A stretch of 64,000 nt of DNA from Clostridia bacterium. Its GTDB lineage: Bacteria; Bacillota; Clostridia; Oscillospirales; CAG-272. Under the pieces are notes generated by a model. The model worked only from the letters and a program-made list of their open reading frames with translations, was not told where the DNA came from and made no database searches. The stretch's first letter is position 1. Every line of letters begins with the position of its first letter. Positions 9,756 to 60,248 of this stretch are shown here, piece after piece. The stretch spans positions 68,224-132,223 of the forward strand of contig JAFUIQ010000011.1 of the NCBI GenBank assembly GCA_017468385.1. Reading direction: 5' to 3'. The position numbers and the translations under genes were made by a program.

Positions 9756-11585
9756 ATGAAACTTTCTCAATTGTTCAAAAAGAAAAAATCCGATAAGATA
9801 AAAATGCCCATTCGGCGAATTATATCGAATAATATTTTCATGCTTCGTATGGCCCATCGCAGTGTGCCGGGGCTTCTGCTCTGTGATATTGTTGTGACTG
9901 TCGGGGCTGCCCTTACTTCGTTTTTGACTTCCACATATATGCTTCGCTATGCACTGAACGGAATCGCAGAAGGGAAGAGCTTCTCCGGTATTGCTGCTTT
10001 TGTCCTGGTGTGTCTGGCCGCCCAGCTCCTTTTGGGGTGGAGTCAATCGTTTTTTTACAGTAAGGTGTATCCCGTCAAGACCTGTAAGATGACAAACGAT
10101 ATCCGCAAAGTGGTTTACGAGAAAGCGGCCCAGGTGGAGTTGGGGTGCTATGAGAATCCGGAGTATTACGATACGTATGTCAAAGCCATAAACGAATGCA
10201 CATCCCGGGCGCAGGCAGTAATGGGGTCCGTGGGGAACATCGTATATATAATTACCAATTTCTCTGCCAATTTCGGGTTATTGCTTGCCATCGATCCTCT
10301 CTTGCTGCTCTTCGCGCTGCTTCCCCTGATGTGCATCCCGATTACCGCCGTTGCCAATAAAATTGTGTACAACCGAAATATGGAAATGACCGCGGCGAAC
10401 CGACGGAAGGAATATACCCGCCGCACCTTTTATCTGTCCGATTACGCCAAGGAGATGCGGCTTTCCAATATGCCGGCACTGATGCTGGAGCGTTTCTGGG
10501 AGGCTGGCACCCGTGTGATTGACATCATAAAAAAATACGGTTTTCGGGTGATTACGCTGAACTATCTGAAAACGGAATGTCTGGAAATGCTGACTCCCCT
10601 GAGTGCCACTATGTATGCGGTCTGGAAGACGCTGGGGGCGGGCACGATGGGATACGGAGACTGTGTGGTTGTGGTGAATTCCATCAGCACGGTGGCGTAT
10701 TCCCTGACAAACATTTCTGACACCTTACTGAAATTCCAGGATCATGCGCTGTATATTGAAAATCTGCGGAAATTTCTGGAATATTCCCCCAAAATCACCG
10801 ATGGGGATAAACCGCTGCCCGCGGGCGGAGATATCGTTCTTGAGAACGTCTCCTTCCGGTATGAGGGGGCTGAGGGATATACTCTGCGCAATATCTCCAT
10901 GCGGCTTGGCGAAAAAGAAAAAATCGCCATTGTGGGACACAATGGCGCCGGAAAAACCACGCTGGTGAAATTGCTCCTCCGTCTGTATGACGCGGAGGGC
11001 GAGATTACATACGGCGGGGAGAAAATATCCGACTTCGCTTTGCGGGAATATCGGGACGCGTTTTCTGCCGTGATGCAGGACTTCCATCTCTTTGCCTTGC
11101 CTGTGGCGGAGAATGTGCTCCTGCGCCCCCAAAATCCGGAGGATGAGGAGGTTATTATAGAATCCTTGAAAAAGAGCGGACTGTATGAGAAGGTAAAAGG
11201 ATTTGAAAATGGGGCGAACACCGTGATGACAAAAGAGTTTGACCCGAACGGTGTGCAGATGTCCGGCGGTGAACAGCAGAAGTTGGCCATTGCTCACGTG
11301 TATTCCAAGAACAATCGCTTTGTGATTTTGGATGAGCCATCCAGTGCGCTGGATCCCATAGCGGAGCACGAGATGTACGAGAGAATGAGTGAGGCGTGCC
11401 GGGATTGCGGTATGATATTTATCTCCCACCGTTTGTCCTCGGCTGTGTCCGCCGATCGGATTTATCTTATGGAAAACGGAGAGATTGCCGAGGTGGGCAC
11501 TCATAGGGAACTGATGGAGTTGAACGGCCGTTATGCGGAGATGTTCCGCCATCAGGCAGAGAATTACGCGGAGGTGGCAGTATGA
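9756..11585 (+). CDS. ABC exporter, fused permease/ATPase
   Basis: TM region + GHNGAGKTT, MSGGEQQK, ILDEPSS, ISHR; start could be 9723. Confidence 0.93.
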   Translation: MKLSQLFKKKKSDKIKMPIRRIISNNIFMLRMAHRSVPGLLLCDIVVTVGAALTSFLTSTYMLRYALNGIAEGKSFSGIAAFVLVCLAAQLLLGWSQSFFYSKVYPVKTCKMTNDIRKVVYEKAAQVELGCYENPEYYDTYVKAINECTSRAQAVMGSVGNIVYIITNFSANFGLLLAIDPLLLLFALLPLMCIPITAVANKIVYNRNMEMTAANRRKEYTRRTFYLSDYAKEMRLSNMPALMLERFWEAGTRVIDIIKKYGFRVITLNYLKTECLEMLTPLSATMYAVWKTLGAGTMGYGDCVVVVNSISTVAYSLTNISDTLLKFQDHALYIENLRKFLEYSPKITDGDKPLPAGGDIVLENVSFRYEGAEGYTLRNISMRLGEKEKIAIVGHNGAGKTTLVKLLLRLYDAEGEITYGGEKISDFALREYRDAFSAVMQDFHLFALPVAENVLLRPQNPEDEEVIIESLKKSGLYEKVKGFENGANTVMTKEFDPNGVQMSGGEQQKLAIAHVYSKNNRFVILDEPSSALDPIAEHEMYERMSEACRDCGMIFISHRLSSAVSADRIYLMENGEIAEVGTHRELMELNGRYAEMFRHQAENYAEVAV

Positions 11586-16596: not shown

Positions 16597-17778
16597 ATGA
16601 AAGAAGTCATCCTGTGCAAATACGGAGAAATTATCCTGAAGGGGGCGAACAAGTCCCAGTTTGAGAGCATTCTGCTCCGCGAGGTGCGCCGCCGTGCCGC
16701 CCATGTGGGACAGTTTGAGGTCAGCTATGCCCAGAGCACCGTGTGCATTGCTCCGCTGACGGATGAGGAAGATATGGAGGAAATGTTCCGCCAGGCCAAG
16801 CACGTCTTTGGCTTTGTAGGCATCACCCGCGCCGCAGTAGCGGAAAAGACGGTGGAGGATATCTGCCGTGTGGCGGCGGAGTATCTGCCCCCCTATCTGG
16901 CGGGTGCCCGAAAACTGCGGGTGGAGGCCAAGCGCTCCGATAAGCAGTTCCCCCTCAAATCCCCCGAATTGGCCGGGGAGGTAGGCGGAGCGATTCTGTC
17001 CGTCATGCCCCATCTGAAGGTGGATCTGACCCATCCCGACGTAACCGTGCGCATTGAGGTGCGGGATCAGTACGCCTATATTCACGCAGGCCAGGAAAAG
17101 GGCGCCGGCGGCATCCCGGTGGGATGCGGCGGACGGGGACTTCTGCTCCTCTCCGGCGGTATCGATAGCCCTGTGGCCGGCTATATGATGGCCCGCCGAG
17201 GACTGGCGCTGGATGCCCTGTATTTTGAAAGCATCCCCTATACCAGCGAACTGGCGCGGGAAAAAGTGTTTACCCTGGCCAAACTTATGACGGAGTACTG
17301 CGGCAAGATCCGCATGCACGTGATCTCCCTGACGAAGATTCAGGAAGCCATCCGCGACAACTGCGACGAGGATTACTTCACCTTGCTCCTTCGCCGCTTT
17401 ATGGTGCGTCTGTCCTGCCGGATGGCAGAGCAGTGCGGCGCGCCGGCTCTCGTGACCGGCGAGAGTCTGGGACAGGTAGCCAGCCAGACGCTGGCGGCGA
17501 TCTGCGTGACAGAGGCCGCGTCGGACCGGCCCATCCTTCGCCCCTGCATCGGTATGGACAAGGAAGAAATCGTGCGGACCGCTCGGGAAATCGGCACCTT
17601 TGAGACGTCGATTTTGCCCTACGAGGATTGCTGTACGGTGTTCACGCCCCGCCATCCCAAGACCCAGCCGGTACTGGAGAAAGTGCTGGAACAGGAAGCA
17701 AAGCTGGATTACGAGGCGCTCTTTGAGGAAGCCTGGCTGACCCGCAATACGCTGGTGGCCGAGCCGTTCTCGCTTTGA
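16597..17778 (+). CDS. thiI: tRNA 4-thiouridine synthase ThiI
   Basis: KYGEIILKG, THUMP domain, LLSGGIDSPVA, GESLGQVASQT, EDCC. Confidence 0.96.
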   Translation: MKEVILCKYGEIILKGANKSQFESILLREVRRRAAHVGQFEVSYAQSTVCIAPLTDEEDMEEMFRQAKHVFGFVGITRAAVAEKTVEDICRVAAEYLPPYLAGARKLRVEAKRSDKQFPLKSPELAGEVGGAILSVMPHLKVDLTHPDVTVRIEVRDQYAYIHAGQEKGAGGIPVGCGGRGLLLLSGGIDSPVAGYMMARRGLALDALYFESIPYTSELAREKVFTLAKLMTEYCGKIRMHVISLTKIQEAIRDNCDEDYFTLLLRRFMVRLSCRMAEQCGAPALVTGESLGQVASQTLAAICVTEAASDRPILRPCIGMDKEEIVRTAREIGTFETSILPYEDCCTVFTPRHPKTQPVLEKVLEQEAKLDYEALFEEAWLTRNTLVAEPFSL

Positions 17779-17810
17779 TTAAGAGACATCGTGAAAAGGT
17801 GGTGACAGTC

Positions 17811-18185
17811 ATGAAGCGGCATCTTTGGACCATCGTGTATATTGCTTTGCATGCCATTGTATTTGGCGCCATGTTTTTGCCGCCGCTGTGGATTCCCAAC
17901 CATGGCAACGGAAATGGCTATGAATATCATCTGTGGCTGGCGGCCATGTTCCCCATCGGAAGTGGAGCCATGGGCATCCTGGCGGCCTTCTTACCCGTGA
18001 AGCGGCAGGTGCGGCTGATCGCCGCCGCCTTGCTTTTGCTGGGGCTTCTGTTTCCGGGATGGGTTGGGACGGCGTTCTATGTGGTTTGTTATACATTGTG
18101 CTTTTTTGCCGCCCGACTGCTTATCTGGATGATTTGTTCCACTATGGCGGACTACCGGGCCTATCGGGCACGAAACCGGGAATAA
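17811..18185 (+). CDS. Small membrane protein, hypothetical
   Basis: About 4 hydrophobic segments; AGGTGG RBS. Confidence 0.7.
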   Translation: MKRHLWTIVYIALHAIVFGAMFLPPLWIPNHGNGNGYEYHLWLAAMFPIGSGAMGILAAFLPVKRQVRLIAAALLLLGLLFPGWVGTAFYVVCYTLCFFAARLLIWMICSTMADYRAYRARNRE

Positions 18186-18230
18186 AATAAAGACGGCTGC
18201 TTTGCCCAACTTCTCATAAGGAAGTTGGGC

Positions 18231-18378
18231 AGTTTTATTCGCCTGCAGCGAGTTCTATTGCTTTGCAGTGATATTCGGCTTACGCCGAGTGGTATTCGCT
18301 GCGCGAGTTTAGGAGGCGAATAAAATACCACTGAAGCTAAAGGCTTCAATATCACTATTGCGGAGCAATAATATCACT
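18231..18378. repeat. Modular hairpin array (conserved 9-nt linker + variable mini-hairpins)
   Basis: AGTKNTATT x4 then inverted AATAYCACT x3, each separated by short stems. Confidence 0.75.
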
Positions 18379-18493
18379 CTTACTTTCTCTGCCAATTCAT
18401 GATATAATATAATCAGCATTATAGGGGTATGGGCATTGCCCTATGCATTTGTAATACAAAGGCGAAACTTGCGATAAAAAGGAGAAAAGAATA

Positions 18494-18859
18494 ATGAATA
18501 ACAGTGTATCAAATTGGATTGATAAAGTTTTGGATCAAGAAATTCCCAATACGGTTGTAGCTTTCTGCTTTAATCTTTACGAGGAATCCGATGGCAGTTG
18601 GGCAATGGAATTGGTTGGAACAGAACGCTTTGACCTCGAAGACGAAGACTGGGCATGCAACGAATTGACCGATTTTGGATCACGAGAGTGTTTGTATAAT
18701 TGGGAAATGGAGTGTGAATGGGACGAAGCTTTAGAATATATGGTTAAGGAATTGAGCCGGTATTTAGAAAACGGTAAATATGCAGATTTGCTGAAATCAA
18801 AAGATGGTGTTGGCGTTGGATTTGTAGACGGGAATATCGAAATTTTGCACACTAAATAA
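18494..18859 (+). CDS. AT-rich acidic hypothetical protein (immunity-protein-like, inferred)
   Basis: AAGGAG RBS, TG-n-TATAAT at 18400-18408, 121 aa, D/E/W-rich. Confidence 0.85.
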   Translation: MNNSVSNWIDKVLDQEIPNTVVAFCFNLYEESDGSWAMELVGTERFDLEDEDWACNELTDFGSRECLYNWEMECEWDEALEYMVKELSRYLENGKYADLLKSKDGVGVGFVDGNIEILHTK

Positions 18860-18865
18860 AAAACG

Positions 18866-18898
18866 AACCCCAACAAATTTTAAAAATCTGTTGGGGTT
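18866..18898 (+). terminator. Terminator of cassette gene
   Basis: AACCCCAACA/TGTTGGGGTT stem. Confidence 0.75.
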
Positions 18899-18933
18899 AA
18901 TCTTTGTCTTCTGCAGAGCAATTATGCCTTTTT

Positions 18934-18960
18934 GGACCGTCGAGGACGCCGGTCCCTACA
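18934..18960 (-). repeat. GTAG-type REP element
   Basis: Reverse complement TGTAG-GGACCG-GCGTCCTCGA-CGGTCC: GTAG tetranucleotide followed by GC hairpin. Confidence 0.7.
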
Positions 18961-19011
18961 AGGAAAATCAAACTTCCTTATGAGAACCAGCCCTTCGCAG
19001 CCGTCTTTTAC

Positions 19012-20937
19012 TTATGCCAGAGGGAATGTCAGGGTGACCTTGAACAGATCCCCATCGGTGCTCAGGGCCAGACGGCCCTTTTGCAGTGCCGTCAGGGAAT
19101 TGGCGATGGACAATCCGAGTCCGCTTCCTTCGGTGGAGCGGGAGGAATCCCCCCGGGTGAATCGCTCCAGCAGCTCCTCACCGGGGATGTTCAGCGGATC
19201 CTGGGACATATTGCGGAAGGTGAAGCAGGCGGATGTGTCCGACGTCTCCAGATTCAGATATACCCGGGATCCGGGCATGGCGTATTTGAGGATGTTGCTC
19301 ATCAGATTGTCAAATACCCGCCACATGAGCCGTCCGTCCGCCAGAATGGTGACGGGATGCTCCGGCTTGGTGACGATCAGCGTCAGATTTCGCCCGGCAA
19401 GACGCTCCTCGTATTCCCCCTCGATCTGGCCGATCAGCATGGCGGCATCGCAGGGGCGAAGATCCACGGCCACGTTGCCCGTGGCGGCCTTGGACGCTTC
19501 AATCAGATCCTCCGTCAGTTTCTTCAGCCGGGAGGACTGCCGATCCAGCACGCGGATGTATTCCGCCATGGGCTCCTCCGTCACGTTCTCTTTCTTCATC
19601 AGATCCACGTAATTGACGATGGAGGTGAGGGGCGTCTTGATGTCGTGGGATACGTTGGTGATCAACTCCGTCCGGAATCGCTCGCTCTTCATCCGCTCCT
19701 CCACCGCACGGCCCATGCCTTCGCCCAGCTGATTCATGGTGTGGGCGAACTTTTTGAAATCTCCCATCAAGTATTCTTCCTCCACGGGGGCATCCAGGTG
19801 TCCTGCCGCCATCCGCTCTCCGCCCACCTGGATCTTTCGCATCATGGACACGGAGGTAAGCAAAATCAGGGCAAGACAGGCATCCTTGATAAGAAGAAAC
19901 AGAATACCGATCATCGGCACCCCGCGGGTGATGAGGAGAATGAGAAGATCCGCCACCCCATTGACCGCGATCAGTATGGCGGTTTTCGGGATCAGGGGGA
20001 TCGATCCCAAAGCGAAGCCGATGAAGCGGAAGAAACGGAAGATGCCGCCGCCGATGAAGCGGAAAACGGGCCATACGATGCGGCGCCAGAGGAACGTGAG
20101 GATGCGCCAGATGAGAAGGACACCCTGCCAGATCACGGTGTTTTTCAGAGTGGTTCCGGACTTTACACGAACGGCCAGACTGGTGAAAAAAACCGTCAGC
20201 AACACCGCATCCACAAAAGCTGCGGCAACGCCGAGGGCGAGCAGAACGCGCCAAGGCAGATCCCACATAGAATCGATGACGGCGATGTGCAGAGCGAATA
20301 GCAGAATGTATCCGCCAAGCAGAAGATCCAGGGGAATCTTGTCAAACCAGCTGCGGGTGATTTCCTCGGATTTGCGCCGATGACCTGCTGTGCACATCAG
20401 AAGGATCAGCAGAATCACATACAGAACGGCACAGCCTGCGGCGATGTAGGGCATCGCGTATCGGAGAGGGAAGAAAGTGCTCAGTCCCTCGTGCAGTGTC
20501 TTATATACATCGCTGTGGGGAAGATCCGGATTCACCTGCAGGGTAACGTGGTATCGCGGGGATTCATAATCGTCGCTGTACCACTCCCGCCGCCAAATGG
20601 TGTACTGTAGTTTTCGGTCTGCCTCCGTGTTCGGGAGGGGAATGTCGGAGGAGGCCACGATGTTGTAAGCATCGTCCTTGATCTGGAACAGTACGTTGGA
20701 GTGCTTGTAAATCTCCGACGGATCATCTCCCCGCAGATGGGCACTCCAGATTTTTTCCTCATCAAGGGCCAGCATCTCACGGAAAACGGTGCTCTCCACA
20801 TACGCCTGGGACATGCGGTCCACATCGCCGGCATAAATGATCACCGACAAAAAAGATGCGGCTACGGCCGTCAGCAGAAGGATCACCGCCAACGCACCGA
20901 GAACTATTTTTGCTGCGCTGCTGTGCAGAAGCTTCAT
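19012..20937 (-). CDS. Membrane sensor histidine kinase
   Basis: NVSHDIKTPLT H-box, NLMSNILKY, ERFTRGD, GSGLGLSI. Confidence 0.95.
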   Translation of the reverse strand: MKLLHSSAAKIVLGALAVILLLTAVAASFLSVIIYAGDVDRMSQAYVESTVFREMLALDEEKIWSAHLRGDDPSEIYKHSNVLFQIKDDAYNIVASSDIPLPNTEADRKLQYTIWRREWYSDDYESPRYHVTLQVNPDLPHSDVYKTLHEGLSTFFPLRYAMPYIAAGCAVLYVILLILLMCTAGHRRKSEEITRSWFDKIPLDLLLGGYILLFALHIAVIDSMWDLPWRVLLALGVAAAFVDAVLLTVFFTSLAVRVKSGTTLKNTVIWQGVLLIWRILTFLWRRIVWPVFRFIGGGIFRFFRFIGFALGSIPLIPKTAILIAVNGVADLLILLITRGVPMIGILFLLIKDACLALILLTSVSMMRKIQVGGERMAAGHLDAPVEEEYLMGDFKKFAHTMNQLGEGMGRAVEERMKSERFRTELITNVSHDIKTPLTSIVNYVDLMKKENVTEEPMAEYIRVLDRQSSRLKKLTEDLIEASKAATGNVAVDLRPCDAAMLIGQIEGEYEERLAGRNLTLIVTKPEHPVTILADGRLMWRVFDNLMSNILKYAMPGSRVYLNLETSDTSACFTFRNMSQDPLNIPGEELLERFTRGDSSRSTEGSGLGLSIANSLTALQKGRLALSTDGDLFKVTLTFPLA

Positions 20938-21641
20938 CGTTTTATACCTCCATCGTTCTTTTCGCCCATTACGTATCCCTGGCCCCAGACCACCCGCAGA
21001 TAGCGGGGCGAGGCGGGATCGATCTCAATCTTTTCCCGCAGATGACGGATATGTACCGCTACGGTGCTTTCCGCCCCGTAGGGGGAATCCTTCCAGACCC
21101 GGCGGTAGATTTCCTTCGGCGGCAGAATCTCCCCCGGATGCTTCATCAGAAGCCGCAGAATCTCGTACTCCGTGGGGGTCAGGGTGAGGGGATCCCCGTC
21201 CAGGGTGACGGTACGGGACCGCTCGGCCAGAGTGATGCCCCCCAGGCGGATTTCATCGTCTCGCCTGGCACCGCCCAAGGTGGTGTACCGTCTGAGTTGG
21301 GAGCGCACCCGGGCGGACAATTCCACCGGATTGAAGGGCTTGGTGACGTAATCGTCCGCGCCGATGTTCAGCCCCAGGATTTTGTCCGTGTCCTCCCCCT
21401 TGGCGGTCAGCAGGATCACGGGCACATTGTATTCCTCCCGCAGGCGGGCGGTGGCACCCAGCCCGTCCATCTTCGGCATCATAATGTCCATCAGCACCAG
21501 ATGGATCTCCTCCCGGGAGAGGATCTCCAGAGCCTCCACGCCGTTTCCCGCGGAGAAGGTTTCGTATCCGTCGGCGTGGAGATAAATCTCCAAAGCCGAC
21601 ACGATGTCTTTTTCGTCATCGCAAATCAGAATGTTGTACAT
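20934..21641 (-). CDS. OmpR-family response regulator
   Basis: ILICDDE, MDIMMP, TKPF, wHTH VWGQGY. Confidence 0.96.
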   Translation of the reverse strand: MYNILICDDEKDIVSALEIYLHADGYETFSAGNGVEALEILSREEIHLVLMDIMMPKMDGLGATARLREEYNVPVILLTAKGEDTDKILGLNIGADDYVTKPFNPVELSARVRSQLRRYTTLGGARRDDEIRLGGITLAERSRTVTLDGDPLTLTPTEYEILRLLMKHPGEILPPKEIYRRVWKDSPYGAESTVAVHIRHLREKIEIDPASPRYLRVVWGQGYVMGEKNDGGIKR

Positions 21642-21717
21642 AGGGCTACCTCTTTACCGATCTCGTTCTCTATATGTATTATAGCAAATGGATCCTTAAT
21701 TGAAAAGTGCAAAGAGT

Positions 21718-21732
21718 TTAAGATTTCTTAAG
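21718..21732. promoter_or_regulatory. Probable OmpR-type binding site (autoregulation)
   Basis: TTAAG-N5-TTAAG direct repeat upstream of TGCTATAAT -10 of the response regulator. Confidence 0.55.
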
Positions 21733-21778
21733 GAATCGGAAAAAGGAAAGAAAAGCCCCGCACAAGGCGGGGCGAGAA

Positions 21779-22948
21779 TCAGGTATTCTTTGGTTTGGTG
21801 ACAATCAGCGCTTTTACGCGCTCACAGAGTTTTTCAAATTCCGGGTGATTGCGAAGAGGATCAAAATCTTTTCTCGTTAGCGCAGCCAAATGTTCGCTGG
21901 GATGCAAACAGGTTCCGGTCATCATACCGTTCATGGTTGTAGTAATAAAAATCATTCGCTCCTTTAAAGCATCCGGATCGTTGTGGACGGTATGCCAACT
22001 CTCTTTTGCACTCCATTCCATTCCATCGAGAAAACGGCAGGAAGTGGGCAATTGCACCTTGGTTGTGATTTTCATGGTTTCTTCCAACAGATTCACCACC
22101 GATTCTGCTTTCGCTATTGCTTCGTCCAATTTGCCACCAGCAGCCAGTCGAGCAGCGGATTTGAGTCCCAATTCAATCCGATCCTGTACCCACATATCCG
22201 GTCGGTCATCCTCGGCATCGCAGCGAATGCATGACAGTATCGTTTCCATAAATTGATCAGCCGCTGCTTTATTTTCGCTGCTTTCTCCCCATTTTAACAG
22301 ATTGCTTGGGTAAAGCAGGCCTTCGAAGGCTTTGTATAGTTGATATCTGCGTTCGGGCTCGAATTTTTCCGCGTCCCCGCGACGCAGATATCTTCTGAAC
22401 AGCAACGCACGTTCCGAGCAATCAAAGGAAGTGGTATGCTTTTTCAGAAAATCAGGCAAATGCTCTTCATCCTCAATATCTGCCATGGTTTGAATGGTGT
22501 GGGGATGCATCGGATTACGTTCCAGATACGCTTCCGCCAGCAAGCGCACCTCGGGCAGTATTTTGGGATCACGGAAAGCCCGGTCGTTTCCTTCACTCCA
22601 CGGACGCCAGGCGGAGTCGCTGCCCAGATAATTTCTGCGTATGTCACGAAGAAGATGTACAATTTTATCCGCATCATAATCCCGTTTCATACACTCGCGC
22701 CGGAGCTCGTCGAATGTTTTTTCAGCGCGTTTTTCTTTTTCGATCTGCGGCATGCCGAGAAGCTCGTCAACCGACACAGAAAGCACCTCGGCAATGGCAG
22801 GGATCAGTTCCAGATCGGGATAGGTGGTGCCGTTTTCCCAGCGGCTGATCGATTGATACGTTACGCCCAAGCACTCGGCCAGGGCTTCCTGGGTCAGATC
22901 GTTTTTCTTTCGGAAACGGCGGATATTCTCACCGATAGTCAGTTTCAT
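21779..22948 (-). CDS. XRE-family HTH regulator with long C-terminal domain
   Basis: IGENIRRFRKKNDLTQEALAECLGVTYQSISRWENG..PD. Confidence 0.9.
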   Translation of the reverse strand: MKLTIGENIRRFRKKNDLTQEALAECLGVTYQSISRWENGTTYPDLELIPAIAEVLSVSVDELLGMPQIEKEKRAEKTFDELRRECMKRDYDADKIVHLLRDIRRNYLGSDSAWRPWSEGNDRAFRDPKILPEVRLLAEAYLERNPMHPHTIQTMADIEDEEHLPDFLKKHTTSFDCSERALLFRRYLRRGDAEKFEPERRYQLYKAFEGLLYPSNLLKWGESSENKAAADQFMETILSCIRCDAEDDRPDMWVQDRIELGLKSAARLAAGGKLDEAIAKAESVVNLLEETMKITTKVQLPTSCRFLDGMEWSAKESWHTVHNDPDALKERMIFITTTMNGMMTGTCLHPSEHLAALTRKDFDPLRNHPEFEKLCERVKALIVTKPKNT

Positions 22949-23115
22949 AATTTCCTCCTTGTGGGGTTTTCTTCAGCCCTGCAAAGCGTTTTCTCTGTCG
23001 ACATCTTTATTTTACAGTAGGGGCAGACGAAAATCAATAACGCATTTAGTGAGAAAAATTATCAGTATATGTTAGGTTTTCCCGGGCGATCGTACCCGCA
23101 TCCCCACAAGAAAAA

Positions 23116-23140
23116 ACACCACCGAGCGACCCGGTGGTGT
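23116..23140 (-). terminator. Terminator
   Basis: ACACCACCG/CGGTGGTGT with adjacent A run. Confidence 0.75.
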
Positions 23141-23156
23141 CTTTGCGTTTATTTCA

Positions 23157-24152
23157 TCAATAGGGGAAGATTCCGTTTTGTACGTGCTTTTTGTAGGTGT
23201 CCTCGCTGACCATGGATTCGGTGACGATCAGCCGATTGAACACGCCGAATCCGCCCTCCTCGCCCGCGTTCAGAACGATGCTCTTCACCTCGGGGAAGCG
23301 GAAGCCGACGCGCAGATTGTCAAACAGGGCATTGAATCGCTTGTCTGCTTTTACGACGGTATGAATACCTCCGCCGGGGCCGTACCAATAGGCGAAGCAT
23401 CCGGTAAACTGGCTGCGGCAGCAGTCTGCCACGCGGAATCCCACGCCGTACTGATCGCTGTAGCAGTAGTAGTACCAGTTGTTGGTGTTTTCATCCCAGA
23501 ACGCGCAGGCGTCGGCGTAATCCGAATAGTTCCCGCTGTACAACGGATGCACGTTCTGCAAAGCGTTGCCGCCGGTCTTGATGCGCACGCCCACATGGGC
23601 ACGGCAGATGCGCATATTGGTCAGGGTATTGTCCGCGCCCTCGATCAGCACGCCTACAGAATCCTTCGTGCCGGTGCAGGTGATGTTCACGCCGGAAATG
23701 TCGCTGTCGGAGGAGCCGCTGTTGGCGCCGTGCTTGATATGGATACCCATGATCACGTGCTTGATGGAGGTGTCCCGGATCACGGTTTCCCGGCCGCTGT
23801 CGATGGAGATGCCGTTTGCCACGTTATTGCCGTCCACGATGCCGCCGCTGAAGAAATAATTGCTTCCGTTTTCAAAGATGTTGTTGGCGGGGTGAATGGC
23901 GCCCAGACGGACCATGGCCTCCGGCGAATCCCAATCGGGGGATGCCTGGAACACTGCAAAGGAAGCCAGCTGCAGGGATACGCTTTTCGCCGGATCGGCG
24001 GGGGTGCAGATGGGCTTTCTCAGCCGATACACGCCGTCAGGGAAAAAGATGGTGCGATTGGGGTTTTCGTCAATCAGTTGCTGGATGGCATCCGACGCAT
24101 CCGTGATGCCGTCCCGCGGCACATTGTCCGCCACAAGATATGCTGTGTTCAT
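23157..24152 (-). CDS. Pectate-lyase-superfamily / GH28-related beta-helix protein
   Basis: DGITDASDAIQQLID..TIFFPDGVY N-terminal motif; beta-helix-like repeats; no signal peptide. Confidence 0.75.
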   Translation of the reverse strand: MNTAYLVADNVPRDGITDASDAIQQLIDENPNRTIFFPDGVYRLRKPICTPADPAKSVSLQLASFAVFQASPDWDSPEAMVRLGAIHPANNIFENGSNYFFSGGIVDGNNVANGISIDSGRETVIRDTSIKHVIMGIHIKHGANSGSSDSDISGVNITCTGTKDSVGVLIEGADNTLTNMRICRAHVGVRIKTGGNALQNVHPLYSGNYSDYADACAFWDENTNNWYYYCYSDQYGVGFRVADCCRSQFTGCFAYWYGPGGGIHTVVKADKRFNALFDNLRVGFRFPEVKSIVLNAGEEGGFGVFNRLIVTESMVSEDTYKKHVQNGIFPY

Positions 24153-24210
24153 GTTTGATTCCTCCGCCTGTGCGAGTTTTTTCTCATTTTAAAATATGCC
24201 GGGGAGGATG

Positions 24211-25758
24211 TCAAGGGTGCGGCCGCTTTTTATAAAAAAACAGACCGTTTTCTGTGAGGAGCAAACACAGCAAGTACAAAAGGATGACTGCCGCGATCCG
24301 CACACCGCACATTCCGCCCGCGCCGATCAGCGGGACTGACGGGAATCCGGAGAGAAAATGGATGGCGGATGTGGCGAAGATCACGCACAGAAGGGGACGG
24401 AGCACCCAACTGCCCACCCGGGGGCGCAGTCCCGTCACCTGCAGAAGACGGCTGATGGAGAGCGCGGCGTTCATCAATTCGCAGGAGTACTGCACGAAAA
24501 AGTATCCCGCCAGCCCGAAGCGGGGGATCAGGAGCAGCACAAGGATCAGACAGCAGAAGGAATCGACGATGTTCACACGCATGCAGTACACCTGCTCCCC
24601 CAGCCCCTTCAGCATCGCGTCCACGGCGGTGTCCAGATACATCACGGGGATCAGCGGGGCAATTCGTGCCAGCTGCAGCGCCGCATCGGTGCCGGGATAG
24701 AGGGCGGTGCCCAGATCGTAAGCGAAGCTGAGGAAGATGCCCGCCGTGCCGATGGCGAACAGCAGGGAAGTGCGCATGACCTTTCCCGCGATGGCGCGGA
24801 TTTTGTCCGTTTCGCCCCGGGCCTGGAATTCGGTGAATTCCGGTATCAGCAATCCCGCAAAGGCGCCCAGCACCGCCGAGGGGAAAAAGATCAGCGGATA
24901 CACCATCCCATGCAGAACGCCGTAGGAGGCCAGGGCGGACGAGGCGGATGCGCCGTTCTTCCGGAATCCCCACGGGATGGCCAGATGCTCCGCCGTCAGC
25001 AGGCCCTGCCGGGCATAGGCTCCCACCGCCACGGGAAAGGCGGTGTGGAACACCTGCGAAAAGGCTGACGGGATCGAATGGGAATCCCCCCGCCTCCGGC
25101 GGAGACTGTCCCGCAGATACAATAGCAGGGACGTGATCATGGATGCCCCCTCCGAGAGAGCAGCCCCGCCCACCACGGCCAGACAGGCGTATTCGATCCC
25201 CGCCGGGGCAAACAGAAGCAGGGCCGATGCGGTGAGGCTGATCTTCACAAACTGCTCCAGCACGGATACGAGGGCGTTTTTGTACACGCGGCGTACCCCC
25301 GTAAAGTATCCCGCCAGGGCGGAGGAGAGGGATATGGCGGGCAAACTGCCGGCCAGCACCCGCAAAGAGGGGATCGTCCGAGTGTCTCCCAGCAGATGGA
25401 TGCCGATCGCCTCCGAGGCGGAAAACAGGATCAGGGCGGCACCGATCCCGAACAGAAGACTGTAGGCGATGCACCCCCGCATCACCCGCCGCAGCCGGGC
25501 GGATCCGTGGGCAAAATCTTCCACTTCGCTTTCGCTGAGGGCGCGGGCGGTCAATCGCACTGCCGCCAGATTGACGCCGGATGTAGCCACGGTGACGGAC
25601 AGGCCGTATACGCTCATCACCAGCGTCACGAGGCCCATGCCCTCTGCCCCCACCTTGGCGGATACATAGGTGTTGAAGCTGACGGTAACAAACCGCAGAA
25701 ACAGTTGCACGCCCGCCAGGAGCGCGGCGTTTCGGAAAAAACGTTGGCCGTTTCGCAT
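24211..25758 (-). CDS. spoVB: SpoVB-like MOP/MurJ-family flippase
   Basis: VGAEGMGL, EQFVKI, YGVLHGMVYPLIFFP, LKGLGEQ; many TM helices. Confidence 0.8.
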   Translation of the reverse strand: MRNGQRFFRNAALLAGVQLFLRFVTVSFNTYVSAKVGAEGMGLVTLVMSVYGLSVTVATSGVNLAAVRLTARALSESEVEDFAHGSARLRRVMRGCIAYSLLFGIGAALILFSASEAIGIHLLGDTRTIPSLRVLAGSLPAISLSSALAGYFTGVRRVYKNALVSVLEQFVKISLTASALLLFAPAGIEYACLAVVGGAALSEGASMITSLLLYLRDSLRRRRGDSHSIPSAFSQVFHTAFPVAVGAYARQGLLTAEHLAIPWGFRKNGASASSALASYGVLHGMVYPLIFFPSAVLGAFAGLLIPEFTEFQARGETDKIRAIAGKVMRTSLLFAIGTAGIFLSFAYDLGTALYPGTDAALQLARIAPLIPVMYLDTAVDAMLKGLGEQVYCMRVNIVDSFCCLILVLLLIPRFGLAGYFFVQYSCELMNAALSISRLLQVTGLRPRVGSWVLRPLLCVIFATSAIHFLSGFPSVPLIGAGGMCGVRIAAVILLYLLCLLLTENGLFFYKKRPHP

Positions 25759-57280: not shown

Positions 57281-58990
57281 ATGCTTCAACGATTTATCCG
57301 GTATTATAAACCCCATATGCGGCTGTTTATGGCCGATCTGGCCTGCGCACTTCTGTTGTCCTTCTGCGATCTGGTGTACCCCATGATCACCCGGGAGATG
57401 ATCAATGAGCACATCCCCAATCGGATGCTGGATTTGCTGCTCATCTGCGCCGCTGTCCTTCTCGGTATTTATATTCTGAAAATGTGCCTGAATTACTTCA
57501 TCCAGTACTACGGCCATCTGGTGGGCGTGCGGATGCAGGCGGATATGCGCCGGGATGTGTTTGACCATCTGCAGAAACTGCCTTTTTCCTATTTCGACAA
57601 TCATAAAACGGGTACCATCATGTCCCGCATCACCAGCGACCTGATGGATATTACAGAACTGGCCCACCACGGGCCGGAGGATCTGTTTATCTCCCTCATT
57701 ATGCTGATCGGTTCCTTTATTCTGATGTGTGACATCTACGTGCCCTTGGCACTGATCGTGGTGGCAATGGTGCCGTTTATGGTATTCTTTGCCGCTAAAA
57801 AACGGCGTAAAATGAGCGATGCCTTTGCGGCCACCCGCGTGGAGATGGGCGAAATCAATGCCAATCTGGAAAACAGCATTTCCGGTATCCGGGTGTCCAA
57901 GGCGTACACCAACCGGGCGTACGAGAACAACAATTTTGCCGCAGGCAATAACCGATTCGTCCACGCCCGCACCGGGGCGTACAAGGTCATGGCGGAGTTT
58001 TCCGCCGGCACGACCATGATCGGGGATCTGCTGAATGTGGTTTTGTATCTGTCCGGCGGCCTTTTTGTCTACTATGGAAAAATCAATGTAGGTGACTTTG
58101 CCGCGTTCCTTCTCTACATCAGCGTGTTCATGAATCCCATCCGCCGGCTGATCGGCTTTGTGGAACAGTTCCAGAACGGTATGACGGGCTTCAAGCGGTT
58201 CGTGGAGATCATGGAAGCCCGGCCCGAGCAGGATGCTCCCGACGCGGTGGATGTGGGAACTCTGCGGGGCGAGATCGCCTTCAACGATGTGACCTTCTCC
58301 TACGACGACGGCAAGACAGTGCTGGATGGCCTGTCCTTCACCCTGGAGGCAGGCAAAACGCTGGCGCTGGTTGGCCCCTCCGGCGGCGGTAAAACCACCA
58401 TCTGCCATCTGATCCCCCGCTTCTACGAGGTGGATGGCGGATCCATCTCCATCGATGGGATGGATGTCCGGGCGATGAGCCGTTTGTCCCTGCGGCATAA
58501 CATCGGTATCGTGGCCCAGGATGTGTTCATGTTTAACGCGTCCATTTACGATAATATTGCCTACGGATGCCCCGACGCTACCCGCGAGGCGGTGGAAGAG
58601 GCGGCACGGCGTGCCAATATCCACGACTATATTTTGACCATGCCCGAGGGATATCAGACCGTGGTGGGCGAGCGGGGCATGAAGCTGTCCGGCGGCCAGA
58701 AGCAGAGATTGGCCATCGCCCGTATCTTTTTGAAGAATCCGCCGATCCTGATTCTGGATGAGGCCACCTCCGCCCTCGATAACGTGACGGAGCAGATGAT
58801 CCAGCACAGCCTGGAGGAGCTCTGTAAGGGCAGAACCACCATCGTGGTGGCTCACCGATTGACTACGGTGCGGAACGCAGACGAGATCCTGGTGGTGACG
58901 GACAGCGGTATCGCGGAGCGGGGCAATCACGACAGCCTGCTTGCGCAAAATGGAATATACGCCGGCCTGTGGCGCGGCGTGGAAAAATAA
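57281..58990 (+). CDS. ABC exporter permease/ATPase (MsbA-like)
   Basis: ELAHHGPED, GPSGGGKTT, LSGGQKQR, LDEATS. Confidence 0.94.
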   Translation: MLQRFIRYYKPHMRLFMADLACALLLSFCDLVYPMITREMINEHIPNRMLDLLLICAAVLLGIYILKMCLNYFIQYYGHLVGVRMQADMRRDVFDHLQKLPFSYFDNHKTGTIMSRITSDLMDITELAHHGPEDLFISLIMLIGSFILMCDIYVPLALIVVAMVPFMVFFAAKKRRKMSDAFAATRVEMGEINANLENSISGIRVSKAYTNRAYENNNFAAGNNRFVHARTGAYKVMAEFSAGTTMIGDLLNVVLYLSGGLFVYYGKINVGDFAAFLLYISVFMNPIRRLIGFVEQFQNGMTGFKRFVEIMEARPEQDAPDAVDVGTLRGEIAFNDVTFSYDDGKTVLDGLSFTLEAGKTLALVGPSGGGKTTICHLIPRFYEVDGGSISIDGMDVRAMSRLSLRHNIGIVAQDVFMFNASIYDNIAYGCPDATREAVEEAARRANIHDYILTMPEGYQTVVGERGMKLSGGQKQRLAIARIFLKNPPILILDEATSALDNVTEQMIQHSLEELCKGRTTIVVAHRLTTVRNADEILVVTDSGIAERGNHDSLLAQNGIYAGLWRGVEK

Positions 58991-59030
58991 AAGGAGATGC
59001 CATAAGGGTTATACTCTAAAGGATAATAAA

Positions 59031-59060
59031 AAAGGAAGCACGAATTTTCATGCTTCCTTT
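59031..59060. terminator. Bidirectional terminator within cassette 2
   Basis: AAAGGAAGCA/TGCTTCCTTT. Confidence 0.7.
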
Positions 59061-59153
59061 AATTATATCTTATACCATAACAAGCAGGACATTTGGGCGC
59101 CCAAGTGTCACTCGTTAGGTGAACCTAAACCCCTTTGACTAACTCAAAAAAAC

Positions 59154-59738
59154 TTAATAAAACTTTGAAGTTGCAACCCATTTTATAAACTCCGCAAAAG
59201 TTCGTTTAGATGGAATAAAATCACGCAATTCATTATCCATCCAAATTTCACCAAAATGGTTTCCCGTGAGCACTAAACAATATTGATAAGTGCAACCCGC
59301 ATAACAGATTGAAATCACACCACTATAGTATGGCATACTATCTGTATCGAGAGAATCAACATAAGCAAAAGGACATTTATCAAAGTGCTTGCATTTAGAA
59401 CAAATTTCATCATCGTCAAGTTCGGGATTTATGCAATCCTTAAACCACTCTACAGGGTCTTGATTTTCGGTATGTAAAAAAGCTTTATCAAAGATAAAAG
59501 GTTGACTCAATAACTTGTTGTGATTATTAAGATTTGCACGTTTAATTCCGTTTACAATTCTTTCTTTACCATTAGGCATGGTAATACGAACGCCATTTCC
59601 AATATGCATCAAAAAATATTTATAATCTTCCGGTAAGGAAATGTTATTTGTTTTTTCAAATGTTTCGATTTCTGTTTGAGAAAGGTTGTCTTCGATTTTT
59701 TCGTATTTTATCTTTTTTAGAAAACTAAAAGTTTTCAT
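59154..59738 (-). CDS. SMI1/KNR4 (SUKH) family protein with Cys-rich insert
   Basis: EIETFEKTNNISLPEDYKYFL..GNG, GC...LVLTG..GEIW, TFAEFIKW; GGAGGTG RBS; TTGCTT-17-TACAAT promoter at 59764-59792. Confidence 0.85.
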   Translation of the reverse strand: MKTFSFLKKIKYEKIEDNLSQTEIETFEKTNNISLPEDYKYFLMHIGNGVRITMPNGKERIVNGIKRANLNNHNKLLSQPFIFDKAFLHTENQDPVEWFKDCINPELDDDEICSKCKHFDKCPFAYVDSLDTDSMPYYSGVISICYAGCTYQYCLVLTGNHFGEIWMDNELRDFIPSKRTFAEFIKWVATSKFY

Positions 59739-59867
59739 ATTGCACCTCCCGAAATTTTATTCAATTGTAACTAAATACGCTACTGTAAGCAATAATATTA
59801 TTAAGCGATATAAAATGGTTATGCCAAGTATCCTTACGGGTACTTGGCATAAATCATCTTCTTTTTG

Positions 59868-60248
59868 TTACCGTACAATCTCCTTGCCGCACCGGGCACA
59901 GAATCTGGCATCCTTGGCCAGATCCGCACCGCAATAGGGACAGAATCCCGCCGCCGCCATATCTACGGTGCCGTTGGCGGTTTCCTTCATGCGGCGGATG
60001 GTTCGCTCGTTTTCTGCGATCTGTCCTTTGAGTTTCTTGATCTCGGCGCACAGATTCTCAATCTCCGGATCGAGCTCGTCTCCGGCCCGGTACTTGCTGA
60101 AGCAGATCTCGCCGATCTGTTTTTTCAGTTCGTTTGCCTTTTCGTTTTTGCTGAAATTGCTGGCGTGCAGCTTGCCGATTTCCACCACTTCGTTGGTCTT
60201 GTCGGAAATCTTCTGCGCCCATTCGCTCATCTTATCCATGAAATCCAT
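59868..60248 (-). CDS. Coiled-coil + double zinc-ribbon protein
   Basis: CPYCG..ARFCARCG; GGAGG RBS. Confidence 0.85.
   Translation of the reverse strand: MDFMDKMSEWAQKISDKTNEVVEIGKLHASNFSKNEKANELKKQIGEICFSKYRAGDELDPEIENLCAEIKKLKGQIAENERTIRRMKETANGTVDMAAAGFCPYCGADLAKDARFCARCGKEIVR

Follow-up and report, generated by a model that had tools for sequence, protein, structure and literature searches.

A 792-bp gene cassette in a terminator loop of a gut Clostridia genome and its probable link to RAYT-type transposases

Genes for RAYT-like tyrosine transposases that are flanked by terminal inverted repeats (TIRs) have been described as TIRtrons or TIRYTs, and the main texts describing them report that some of these terminal repeats form repeat families (PMC3733652; PMC6006769). 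REPINs are short non-coding doublets that are inherited vertically with a single-copy RAYT, and RAYTs of group 1 are reported in Clostridia, according to the main text of one study (PMC5581495). The main text that describes the Gut-1 motif presents it as a candidate non-coding RNA, with human gut sequence as its only known source (PMC2864571). Here we examine a 64,000-nt stretch of contig JAFUIQ010000011.1, from assembly GCA_017468385.1 of a Clostridia bacterium (62 contigs, 93.6% complete; G000 below), and we refer to the whole stretch as the window. At positions 18202-18993 it carries a 792-bp insert with a single small gene. This insert is present or absent within one species, its site holds other cargo in a relative, the same cargo stands in other terminators elsewhere, and the insert belongs to a family of common architecture, some members of which carry a RAYT-like gene. 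From sequence comparison we consider it probable that the insert is a non-autonomous mobile gene cassette, seated in the TTTC loop of a host terminator and mobilised in trans by a RAYT-like enzyme.

TIRtrons and TIRYTs are the closest published kind of element. The cassette family resembles them in its RAYT-like HUH/Y1 gene, its recurring terminal repeats and the GTAG-tagged REPs nearby; the window cassette has the terminal repeats and a GTAG-REP, and encodes no RAYT transposase. The family differs in its cargo, its promoter-leader-terminator modules and its transposase-less, gene-carrying derivatives, none of which is mentioned in the main texts on TIRtrons and TIRYTs (PMC3733652; PMC6006769). 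The word "terminator" occurs 0 times in those two texts, and the TIR motif published there, GGGGWSAS, differs from the 16-mer that marks the cassette ends. With REPINs the window cassette shares non-autonomy, GTAG-REP hairpins, a place at gene ends and presumed mobilisation in trans by a RAYT, as the main text of PMC5581495 describes it for REPINs; in contrast, the cassettes are 0.8-1.3 kb long, carry a gene with a predicted promoter, are common to several genera, and can hold the RAYT inside. The published main texts that we searched, with element-listing supplements outside the search, contain no account of cargo-carrying RAYT/TIR elements, transposase-less cassettes or terminator-loop homing.

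The insert lies between two convergent open reading frames (ORFs), a small membrane-protein ORF (17775-18185, + strand) and a histidine kinase gene with HisKA and HATPase_c domains (19012-20937, - strand), with a response regulator next to the kinase and ThiI upstream of the site. An earlier sequence-only reading of this DNA had described an AT-rich cassette bounded by bipartite inverted repeats of 12 + 16 bp, equally spaced, that begin 3 bp from the two convergent stop codons. The coordinates agree: both pairs are exact, a 10-nt spacer separates 12-mer from 16-mer on each side, and the G+C content is 40% in the cassette versus 57% in the flanking genes. The features of the site are as follows.

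18189..18200, + strand: left half of the host bidirectional terminator stem, AAAGACGGCTGC, the exact complement of 18997-19008
18201..18203, + strand: loop remnant TTT; three placements of the junction are possible, after 18201, 18202 or 18203
18204..18226, + strand: left (promoter-side) terminal inverted repeat, GCCCAAC plus the 16-mer TTCTCATAAGGAAGTT, found also at 9 further Gut-type ends in other genomes
18971..18993, - strand: right (distal) terminal inverted repeat, the 16-mer plus CCAGCCC; the last letters absent from the empty allele are CC at 18993
18994..18996, + strand: loop remnant TTC, the first letters past the joint in the empty allele
18997..19008, + strand: right half of the host terminator stem, GCAGCCGTCTTT, recognised from the inverted repeat and the empty allele

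The 16-mer stands at 18211-18226 and its exact reverse complement at 18971-18986. With up to two mismatches allowed it has 2 sites in the window versus 0.03 expected, a number reached in 0 of 100 shuffles; the 12-mer, at up to one mismatch, has 2 sites versus 0.29 expected, and 2 of 100 shuffles reach 2.

Logan contigs from four gut-metagenome runs of four studies (X5, X7, X9 and X13) were aligned to window positions 17500-19700; Logan records are contigs, not raw reads, and contigs drop rare forms. Contigs in three of the four runs, from three studies, pass directly from 18201 to 18994, skipping 792 letters, with two letters (TT) that fit either side. The element is accordingly 18202-18993, with a register uncertain by up to 2 nt. 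The empty-allele contig of X5 measures 4398 nt, at a depth of 34.8, and differs from the window by 10 + 5 letters over 660 + 707 aligned nt; those of X9 and X13 measure 1245 and 1003 nt, and in X7, where the kinase contig begins at 19008, no contig spans the site. The empty allele reads AAAGACGGCTGC-TTTC-GCAGCCGTCTTT with nothing between the joined sides. With flanks that match the window at about 99% identity, the empty allele belongs to the same species as the filled one, and the two coexist there as a presence/absence polymorphism. Folded as RNA, the empty site forms a 12-bp stem with a 4-nt loop at -25 kcal/mol. The prediction that the outer 12-mers, once joined, would make an ordinary bidirectional terminator is thereby borne out, as is the proposal that an empty site would have the form stem-short loop-stem. 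The GCCC direct repeat pointed out at 18204 and 18990 is present too, and the joint in the empty allele fixes it as the terminal letters of the element. The cassette had been called either inserted or invertible; only the former gained support, and no strand-changing joint that would mark an inversion occurs among the contigs of the four runs, a form of record in which rare forms are lost. The modules of the cassette are evidently common in gut samples, given summed metagenome depths of 450-2150 (450-710 for the leader) versus 6-35 in the flanks.

Contig C61 of the same assembly (6364 bp) duplicates window 18990-25353 over its whole length at 99.97% identity; its outer 12-mer has a single change, and the contig stops precisely at 18990, within the right repeat. 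It has the appearance of a second strain in which the assembly broke at a repeated module. We considered C61 as a hint of the empty allele and rejected it, because the GCCC of the right repeat is still present, which makes it another filled strain.

The interior had been read as a hairpin array, a promoter, a gene for a 121-aa acidic protein, a terminator and a REP, with no mobility gene, and all of these parts could be located:

18202..18239, + strand: hairpin formed by the left repeat, stem 18203-18213 / 18221-18231 (inverted repeat, 11/11), then TTTTATT
18230..18385, + strand: hairpin array, of which the first ~71 nt match Rfam Gut-1 (RF01706); DNA fold -44.7 kcal/mol, z -5.8
18386..18420, + strand: putative promoter module, extended -10 TGATATAAT at 18400-18408, as read from the sequence
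18421..18480, + strand: conserved leader (5' untranslated region module) with a GGGC-loop-GCCC hairpin and the near-palindrome GCATTTGTAATACAAAGGC, defined by recurrent copies
18494..18859, + strand: cargo gene for the 121-aa acidic protein, from the ORF call
18866..18898, strand not assigned: terminator hairpin of the cassette itself, an inverted repeat, terminator-like with 15 pairs, - strand flagged
18934..18959, - strand: REP, hairpin GGACCG..CGGTCC with its GTAG tag on the bottom strand, from sequence reading

The cargo gene is the only ORF, and the ORFs and Pfam/NCBIfam matches of the cassette include no mobility gene and no transposase match. Among the ORFs and domain matches of the window there is likewise no recombinase, integrase or invertase gene beside it.

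The closest species-level relative, G013, has the same terminator occupied (contig C20, flanks 92-96% identical). The left repeat of its cassette is identical, and the array, promoter and leader are homologous; the cassette lacks a REP and carries a different, 155-aa gene in place of the 121-aa one, which confirms the suggestion that a related genome might hold other cargo at this site. Homology between the two cassettes stops at 18477 and resumes at 18967. Three joints in X13 (18477 to 18966, 18478 to 18882 and 18480 to 18922) place further cargos between the shared modules. G000 and G013 may share the insert by descent or may each have gained it; the Gut module of G013 is no closer to that of the window (90% identical) than are copies from unrelated genomes (88-89.5%).

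The converse also holds: other genomes have the 121-aa gene, at about 95% nucleotide identity, in other terminators. A Gut-type cassette (L058) is collinear with 18202-18914 at 84% and occupies a different terminator. In G046 (L177) a match to 18478-18986 at 91%, including the terminator, the REP and the right repeat, lies downstream of a RAYT gene, and G020 (L016) has the 121-aa cargo, 95% identical along the gene, behind a RAYT-like gene. In its left half the window cassette resembles the Gut-type cassettes, and in its right half the RAYT-bearing unit of G046.

Assembly G000 itself holds sibling cassettes (on contigs C18, C7 and C5). The C18 cassette, which has a variant repeat, stands between AAAAGGGCTGATGC and GCATCAGCCCTTTT, and the same place in G013 is an intact hairpin with stem GGGCTGATGC and loop GTAATG. 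The C7 cassette, whose cargo is HEAT-like, meets at its right end one half of a hairpin; this hairpin is intact in G008, G013, G002 and G012, where it stands upstream of the neighbouring gene and has TT in its loop; the left junction of this cassette was not found in the assembly. All three cassettes of G000 that have an uninterrupted counterpart sit in the loop of a terminator hairpin, with the fourth, on C5, outside the comparison. That fourth cassette (C5:48925-50060) has a variant repeat and the conserved leader, followed by a P-loop kinase-like gene and then a DUF559-type gene; the latter is bracketed by a long inverted repeat of its own, seen too beside the empty C18 site in G013. In two other species of the genus, cassettes occupy one shared terminator after thiI (L020 on G003:C4 and L024 on G007:C18, outer stem AAAAAGCGTCTGC), and repeat variant, REP type and cargo differ between the two.

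The 16-mer is not unique to the locus, as the sequence-only reading had allowed it might be; it is spread across gut Clostridia. An exact scan over one genome per species (596 Gb) gave at least 120 stretches, to be read beside about 280 hits expected by chance on our own arithmetic, and 80 of these loci are listed. Fifty-nine of the 80 come from records labelled Clostridia or its orders or families, mostly gut metagenome-assembled genomes, and about 53 have, by eye, one common end architecture. Read inward, this consists of an A-run, 8-12 variable G+C-rich nt, a semi-conserved 6-7 nt and the 16-mer, inward of which stands a Gut-1 array (9 ends), a GTAG-REP or REP doublet of several sequence types, or a promoter. 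Within the taxonomic family of the host, 34 of 121 genomes contain the 16-mer at up to one mismatch, with as many as 19 copies per genome.

Twenty-five units have both ends, and their variable outer parts are complementary within a unit and different between units. A complementary run of at least 8 nt joins the outer flanks of 17 of the 25, versus 12% of 598 mismatched pairings, a control that shared A-runs inflate; the three RAYT-bearing units among the 25 also lie between complementary terminator halves. Promoter, conserved leader, a single small gene and terminator are present in every unit that we read, and the order in the family is terminal repeat, Gut-1 array or GTAG-REP, promoter, leader, one variable gene, terminator, terminal repeat. 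Full-length members run from terminal repeat through promoter, RAYT-like HUH (Y1) transposase, leader, cargo and terminator to the second terminal repeat. When 18 other cargos were scanned, 8 had a Pfam match, all to different families (HD_3, GNAT, Peptidase_S51, DUF559, DUF3795, DUF3885, SF0329 and, below its cut-off, DUF2691), and 10 had none. The family is large, tied to REP-type (RAYT) transposases and apparently undescribed.

The evidence for a transposase begins with L016, where an ORF between promoter and leader matches the NCBIfam model REP_Tyr_transpos at E 1.5e-16 (60.6 bits, cut-off 80). The protein aligns with E. coli TnpA-REP (4ER8) at E 4e-8 across the HUH segment and the C-terminal tyrosine region; the choice of the catalytic tyrosine in this alignment is our assumption. 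Against the Pfam model Y1_Tnp, the related transposase reaches only E 0.021 (15.4 bits, cut-off 23). The closest relatives of the L016 protein in the 121 genomes occupy 25 RAYT loci. In 11 of these the leader module follows directly after the RAYT stop codon, and the 16-mer (at up to three mismatches) bounds 5, with a sixth cut by a contig end. A RAYT match is present in 23 of the 34 genomes with the 16-mer versus 23 of the 87 without it (Fisher p = 5e-5, uncorrected for kinship). The earlier suggestion to look for RAYT genes linked to the 16-mer was therefore a fruitful one, in that some members of the family do carry a RAYT-like transposase gene. Among the fetched loci (up to 8 kb), no repeat-bounded unit contains another transposase gene; the largest units, of about 1.3 kb, hold RAYT or DUF559. 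Since larger members carry a RAYT-like HUH transposase before the leader and the window copy does not, the window copy is non-autonomous. The natural reading is that the RAYT-bearing units may be the autonomous forms and the window cassette a derivative without the enzyme, and we infer that the latter is mobilised in trans by a RAYT-like protein.

The RAYT-like ORFs carry in-frame REP copies as an inverted pair around the HUH region (in L016, 1005-1086 and 1244-1298, three plus two in tandem), and such a pair is present also at G000:C32:10440-10461 and 10614-10635. With these copies in frame, the transposase gene contains its own presumed substrate sequence. G069 is among the genomes with most copies of the 16-mer (15), yet all that it has of a RAYT is a broken fragment.

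The ends of the units show regularities that bear on how the insert may have arrived. When the 25 units are oriented by their cargo, TT stands at -9/-8 before the promoter-side 16-mer in all 25, and T follows the distal 16-mer at +8 in 20 and at +9 in 22. The reading GGATG occurs in 12 of the 25 promoter-side 16-mers versus 1 of the 25 distal ones. The two ends are therefore not equivalent, and the strand asymmetry fits a strand-specific mechanism. A strand-specific rule with a short target is known from Y1 HUH transposases, which act on single-stranded DNA. The TT found at each junction of the insert could come from a 2-bp duplication, or from an element that has TT at its own end and inserted 3' of a TT. 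The invariant TT at the 5' junction, with the TT in the TTTC loop of the window and in the loop of the C7 site, fits insertion immediately 3' of a loop TT. We suspect that a RAYT-like enzyme supplied in trans would act on single-stranded DNA of the cassette, which would then land just 3' of the TT that an extruded terminator loop exposes, on the future sense strand of the cargo. The split host terminator would be replaced, for the upstream gene, by the left-repeat hairpin with its T tail (11-13 bp). A terminator scan reports a terminator-like site at 18202-18232, with 13 pairs and a T tail, and this hairpin is likely a substitute terminator for that gene. The cassette would supply its own predicted expression parts as well as those that might make it harmless at such a site, and two cassettes might trade cargo by recombining within the conserved leader and right-end modules.

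Several observations weigh against this account. Only 1 of the 22 units found through the 16-mer carries a RAYT, and 11 of the 34 genomes with the 16-mer have no RAYT match; when 10 of these 11 were searched again with the protein, 8 gave nothing and 2 gave fragments only. Of the RAYT-like genes in G000, the two that were read, at C32, are without the 16-mer repeats, and their internal REP-like stretches differ in sequence type from the REP of the cassette. A 2-bp target duplication could account for the TT at each junction, and such duplications are typical of DDE enzymes, not of HUH enzymes. At C18 the loop letters of the filled/empty pair do not match a simple TT rule, in flanks that have diverged by 8%. 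The ends also set the cassette apart from the IS200/IS605 elements, which transpose as single strands by Y1 HUH enzymes and have subterminal hairpins, without terminal inverted repeats or hairpin-loop targeting. A related transposase fold, strand-specific ends and insertion by a short fixed sequence (here TT) are common to both, and a dependence on hairpins is plausible; yet the cassette ends are terminal inverted repeats, the target is a hairpin loop, and the protein is closer to RAYT. The empty allele rests on Logan contigs rather than on raw reads. Finally, the evidence is comparative throughout, with enzyme activity and transposition intermediates outside its reach.

Some of these points would be accommodated if the family were TIR elements moved by a classical (DDE-type) transposase that inserts in hairpin loops and duplicates a 2-bp TT there, with the RAYT only one of many passengers. 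Terminal inverted repeats of 22-23 bp, the flanking TTs, the single RAYT among 22 units seeded by the 16-mer and the 8 cassette-bearing genomes in which a second search met no RAYT are all what such an element would produce. We nevertheless consider it unlikely, though it deserves some weight: no other transposase lies inside any repeat-bounded unit among the fetched loci, the RAYT occupies the same position, between promoter and leader, in 11 of 25 loci, and GTAG-REPs, a known class of RAYT substrate, adjoin the repeats. Moreover, the ends differ systematically and keep one orientation to the cargo, and the 16-mer and RAYT co-occur. An integron-like site-specific recombination at the leader palindrome, in place of whole-cassette transposition followed by homologous recombination, might instead explain the turnover of cargo. 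It would fit the sharp cargo boundaries at the end of the leader (18477-18480), the compensatory variants of the conserved leader near-palindrome and the small, diverse accessory cargos (8 of 18 with a Pfam match, all to different families), and integron cassettes are also small single-gene units with recombination-prone ends and turnover at a fixed site. Here, however, there is no integrase, attI platform or array; the cassettes are solo, each with its own promoter and terminator, in dispersed terminator loops where whole cassettes are present or absent, and conserved modules of 60-140 bp would suffice for homologous exchange. We therefore find this improbable.

Two further explanations concern the locus itself. 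One holds that the 0.8-kb segment is ancestral intergenic DNA and that the "empty" form arose by secondary deletion or as an assembly artefact, to which the occupied site in G013 and the use of contigs as metagenome records lend something. In three runs of three studies, however, the joint falls precisely at the repeat ends and brings back a perfect hairpin (12 bp, 4-nt loop), two other cassettes relate likewise to intact hairpins, and the segment has 40% G+C versus 57%, all of which make this explanation very improbable. Still harder to credit, and barely so, is an invertible switch whose inverted repeats are the recombination sites of an invertase. Exact inverted repeats do bound the segment, but contigs of four runs include no strand-changing joint and those of three include the empty form, in which the outer 12-mers prove to be halves of a host terminator; the gene would flip together with its own promoter, changing nothing obvious, and no recombinase gene lies beside the cassette.

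Returning to the cassette as a mobile unit served by a RAYT-like enzyme, its resemblance to other known elements is partial. With miniature inverted-repeat transposable elements it shares terminal inverted repeats, the absence of a transposase, presence/absence polymorphism and many copies; it differs in being 792 bp long and coding, with a conserved 121-aa gene, a promoter and a terminator. REP loops are the target of IS1397-type elements, and class C group II introns insert downstream of terminators. These too take as target a stem-loop at a gene end, where insertion is nearly harmless, but they rely on a DDE transposase or an intron ribonucleoprotein and bring no cargo gene. It is possible, and we propose it tentatively, that the family represents a new class of mobile element, namely promoter-equipped single-gene cassettes that are driven by single-strand transposases of the RAYT/TIRYT type, home to TT in terminator loops, replace the terminators they enter and swap cargo.

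RAYTs are usually viewed as domesticated single-copy genes, and their activity and role are debated. If the proposal is correct, they would be active, horizontally moving transposases with passengers, the family would amount to a dispersed "integron without a platform" that spreads small accessory genes between genera, and the Gut-1 "RNA" would be one of the DNA end modules of the element. Landing in a terminator loop would allow a gene-carrying element to insert at near-zero cost to the host, with filled and empty alleles in natural populations of one species. The case connects RAYT-type transposases, GTAG-REPs and the orphan Gut-1 motif, and it suggests a route by which small accessory genes, many without a known family, may pass among gut Clostridia.

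The Gut-1 match in the window covers 18230-18300 at full model length, with 41.5 bits and E 5.6e-7, below the gathering score of 50. The orthologous array of G013 scores 56.3 bits, and 5 of 15 related loci reach the gathering score. The arrays as a family agree with Gut-1, and the window copy is slightly degenerate. Its first three hairpins match the model end to end. In the published account, as its main text has it, Gut-1 is a candidate RNA (PMC2864571), whereas here it would be an end module of a mobile element. The array lies between a terminator-like hairpin and the cassette promoter, and it may therefore act as DNA rather than RNA.

The remaining modules also recur. A simple promoter scan did not flag the extended -10 at 18400-18408; the promoter module was found again in other cassettes, overlapping matches to the promoter of the RAYT gene in L016, and it appears related to the promoter that drives RAYT in larger members, a likeness judged by eye for the window copy. 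Fifty-seven distinct copies of the leader, at 74-98% identity, were counted in the fetched loci. Its near-palindrome (window 18446-18464) has compensatory variants (GCC..GGC versus GCA..TGC), and one variant contains an inserted GC-rich hairpin; either an RNA hairpin or a symmetric DNA site could be what is under constraint. Hairpins related to 18866-18898 stand after other cargos. The REP type of 18934-18959 adjoins the 16-mer in many loci and is found inside RAYT-like ORFs as well. A free, REPIN-like inverted doublet of exactly this REP type lies in intergenic DNA at G000:C5:21783-21870.

The 121-aa cargo protein has a pI of 4.05, with 28 D+E versus 9 K+R, and has no match in Pfam or NCBIfam. 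We found 322 homologues; among the 120 listed none has a Pfam domain, and the few names given are "hypothetical protein" and, once, "shikimate kinase". Most homologues are on contigs of 0.5-1.5 kb, an indication that cassettes break short-read assemblies and that the pool of cassette genes is probably under-counted. The AF2 model of the protein has a pLDDT of 94.4. Foldseek returned nothing from the PDB at E <= 0.001, and the best hit of a wide VIA-align search (Z 4.3) is within noise; the ESM Atlas yielded unnamed clusters only and, at 0.86, a weak pointer to DUF4303/DUF6389. The protein is small and acidic, and one might guess from this that it is immunity- or inhibitor-like. A search of a plasmid collection with the cassette gave no match, and in a phage collection one record matches 113 nt of the Gut-1 part at 78%.

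Elsewhere in the window, positions 58990-59880 form a second AT-rich island (38% G+C), in which the ends of the 16-mer family were not seen. Its 194-aa gene (59154-59738, - strand) belongs, at E 4e-8, to the SMI1/KNR4 (SUKH-1) family, which is known for immunity proteins.

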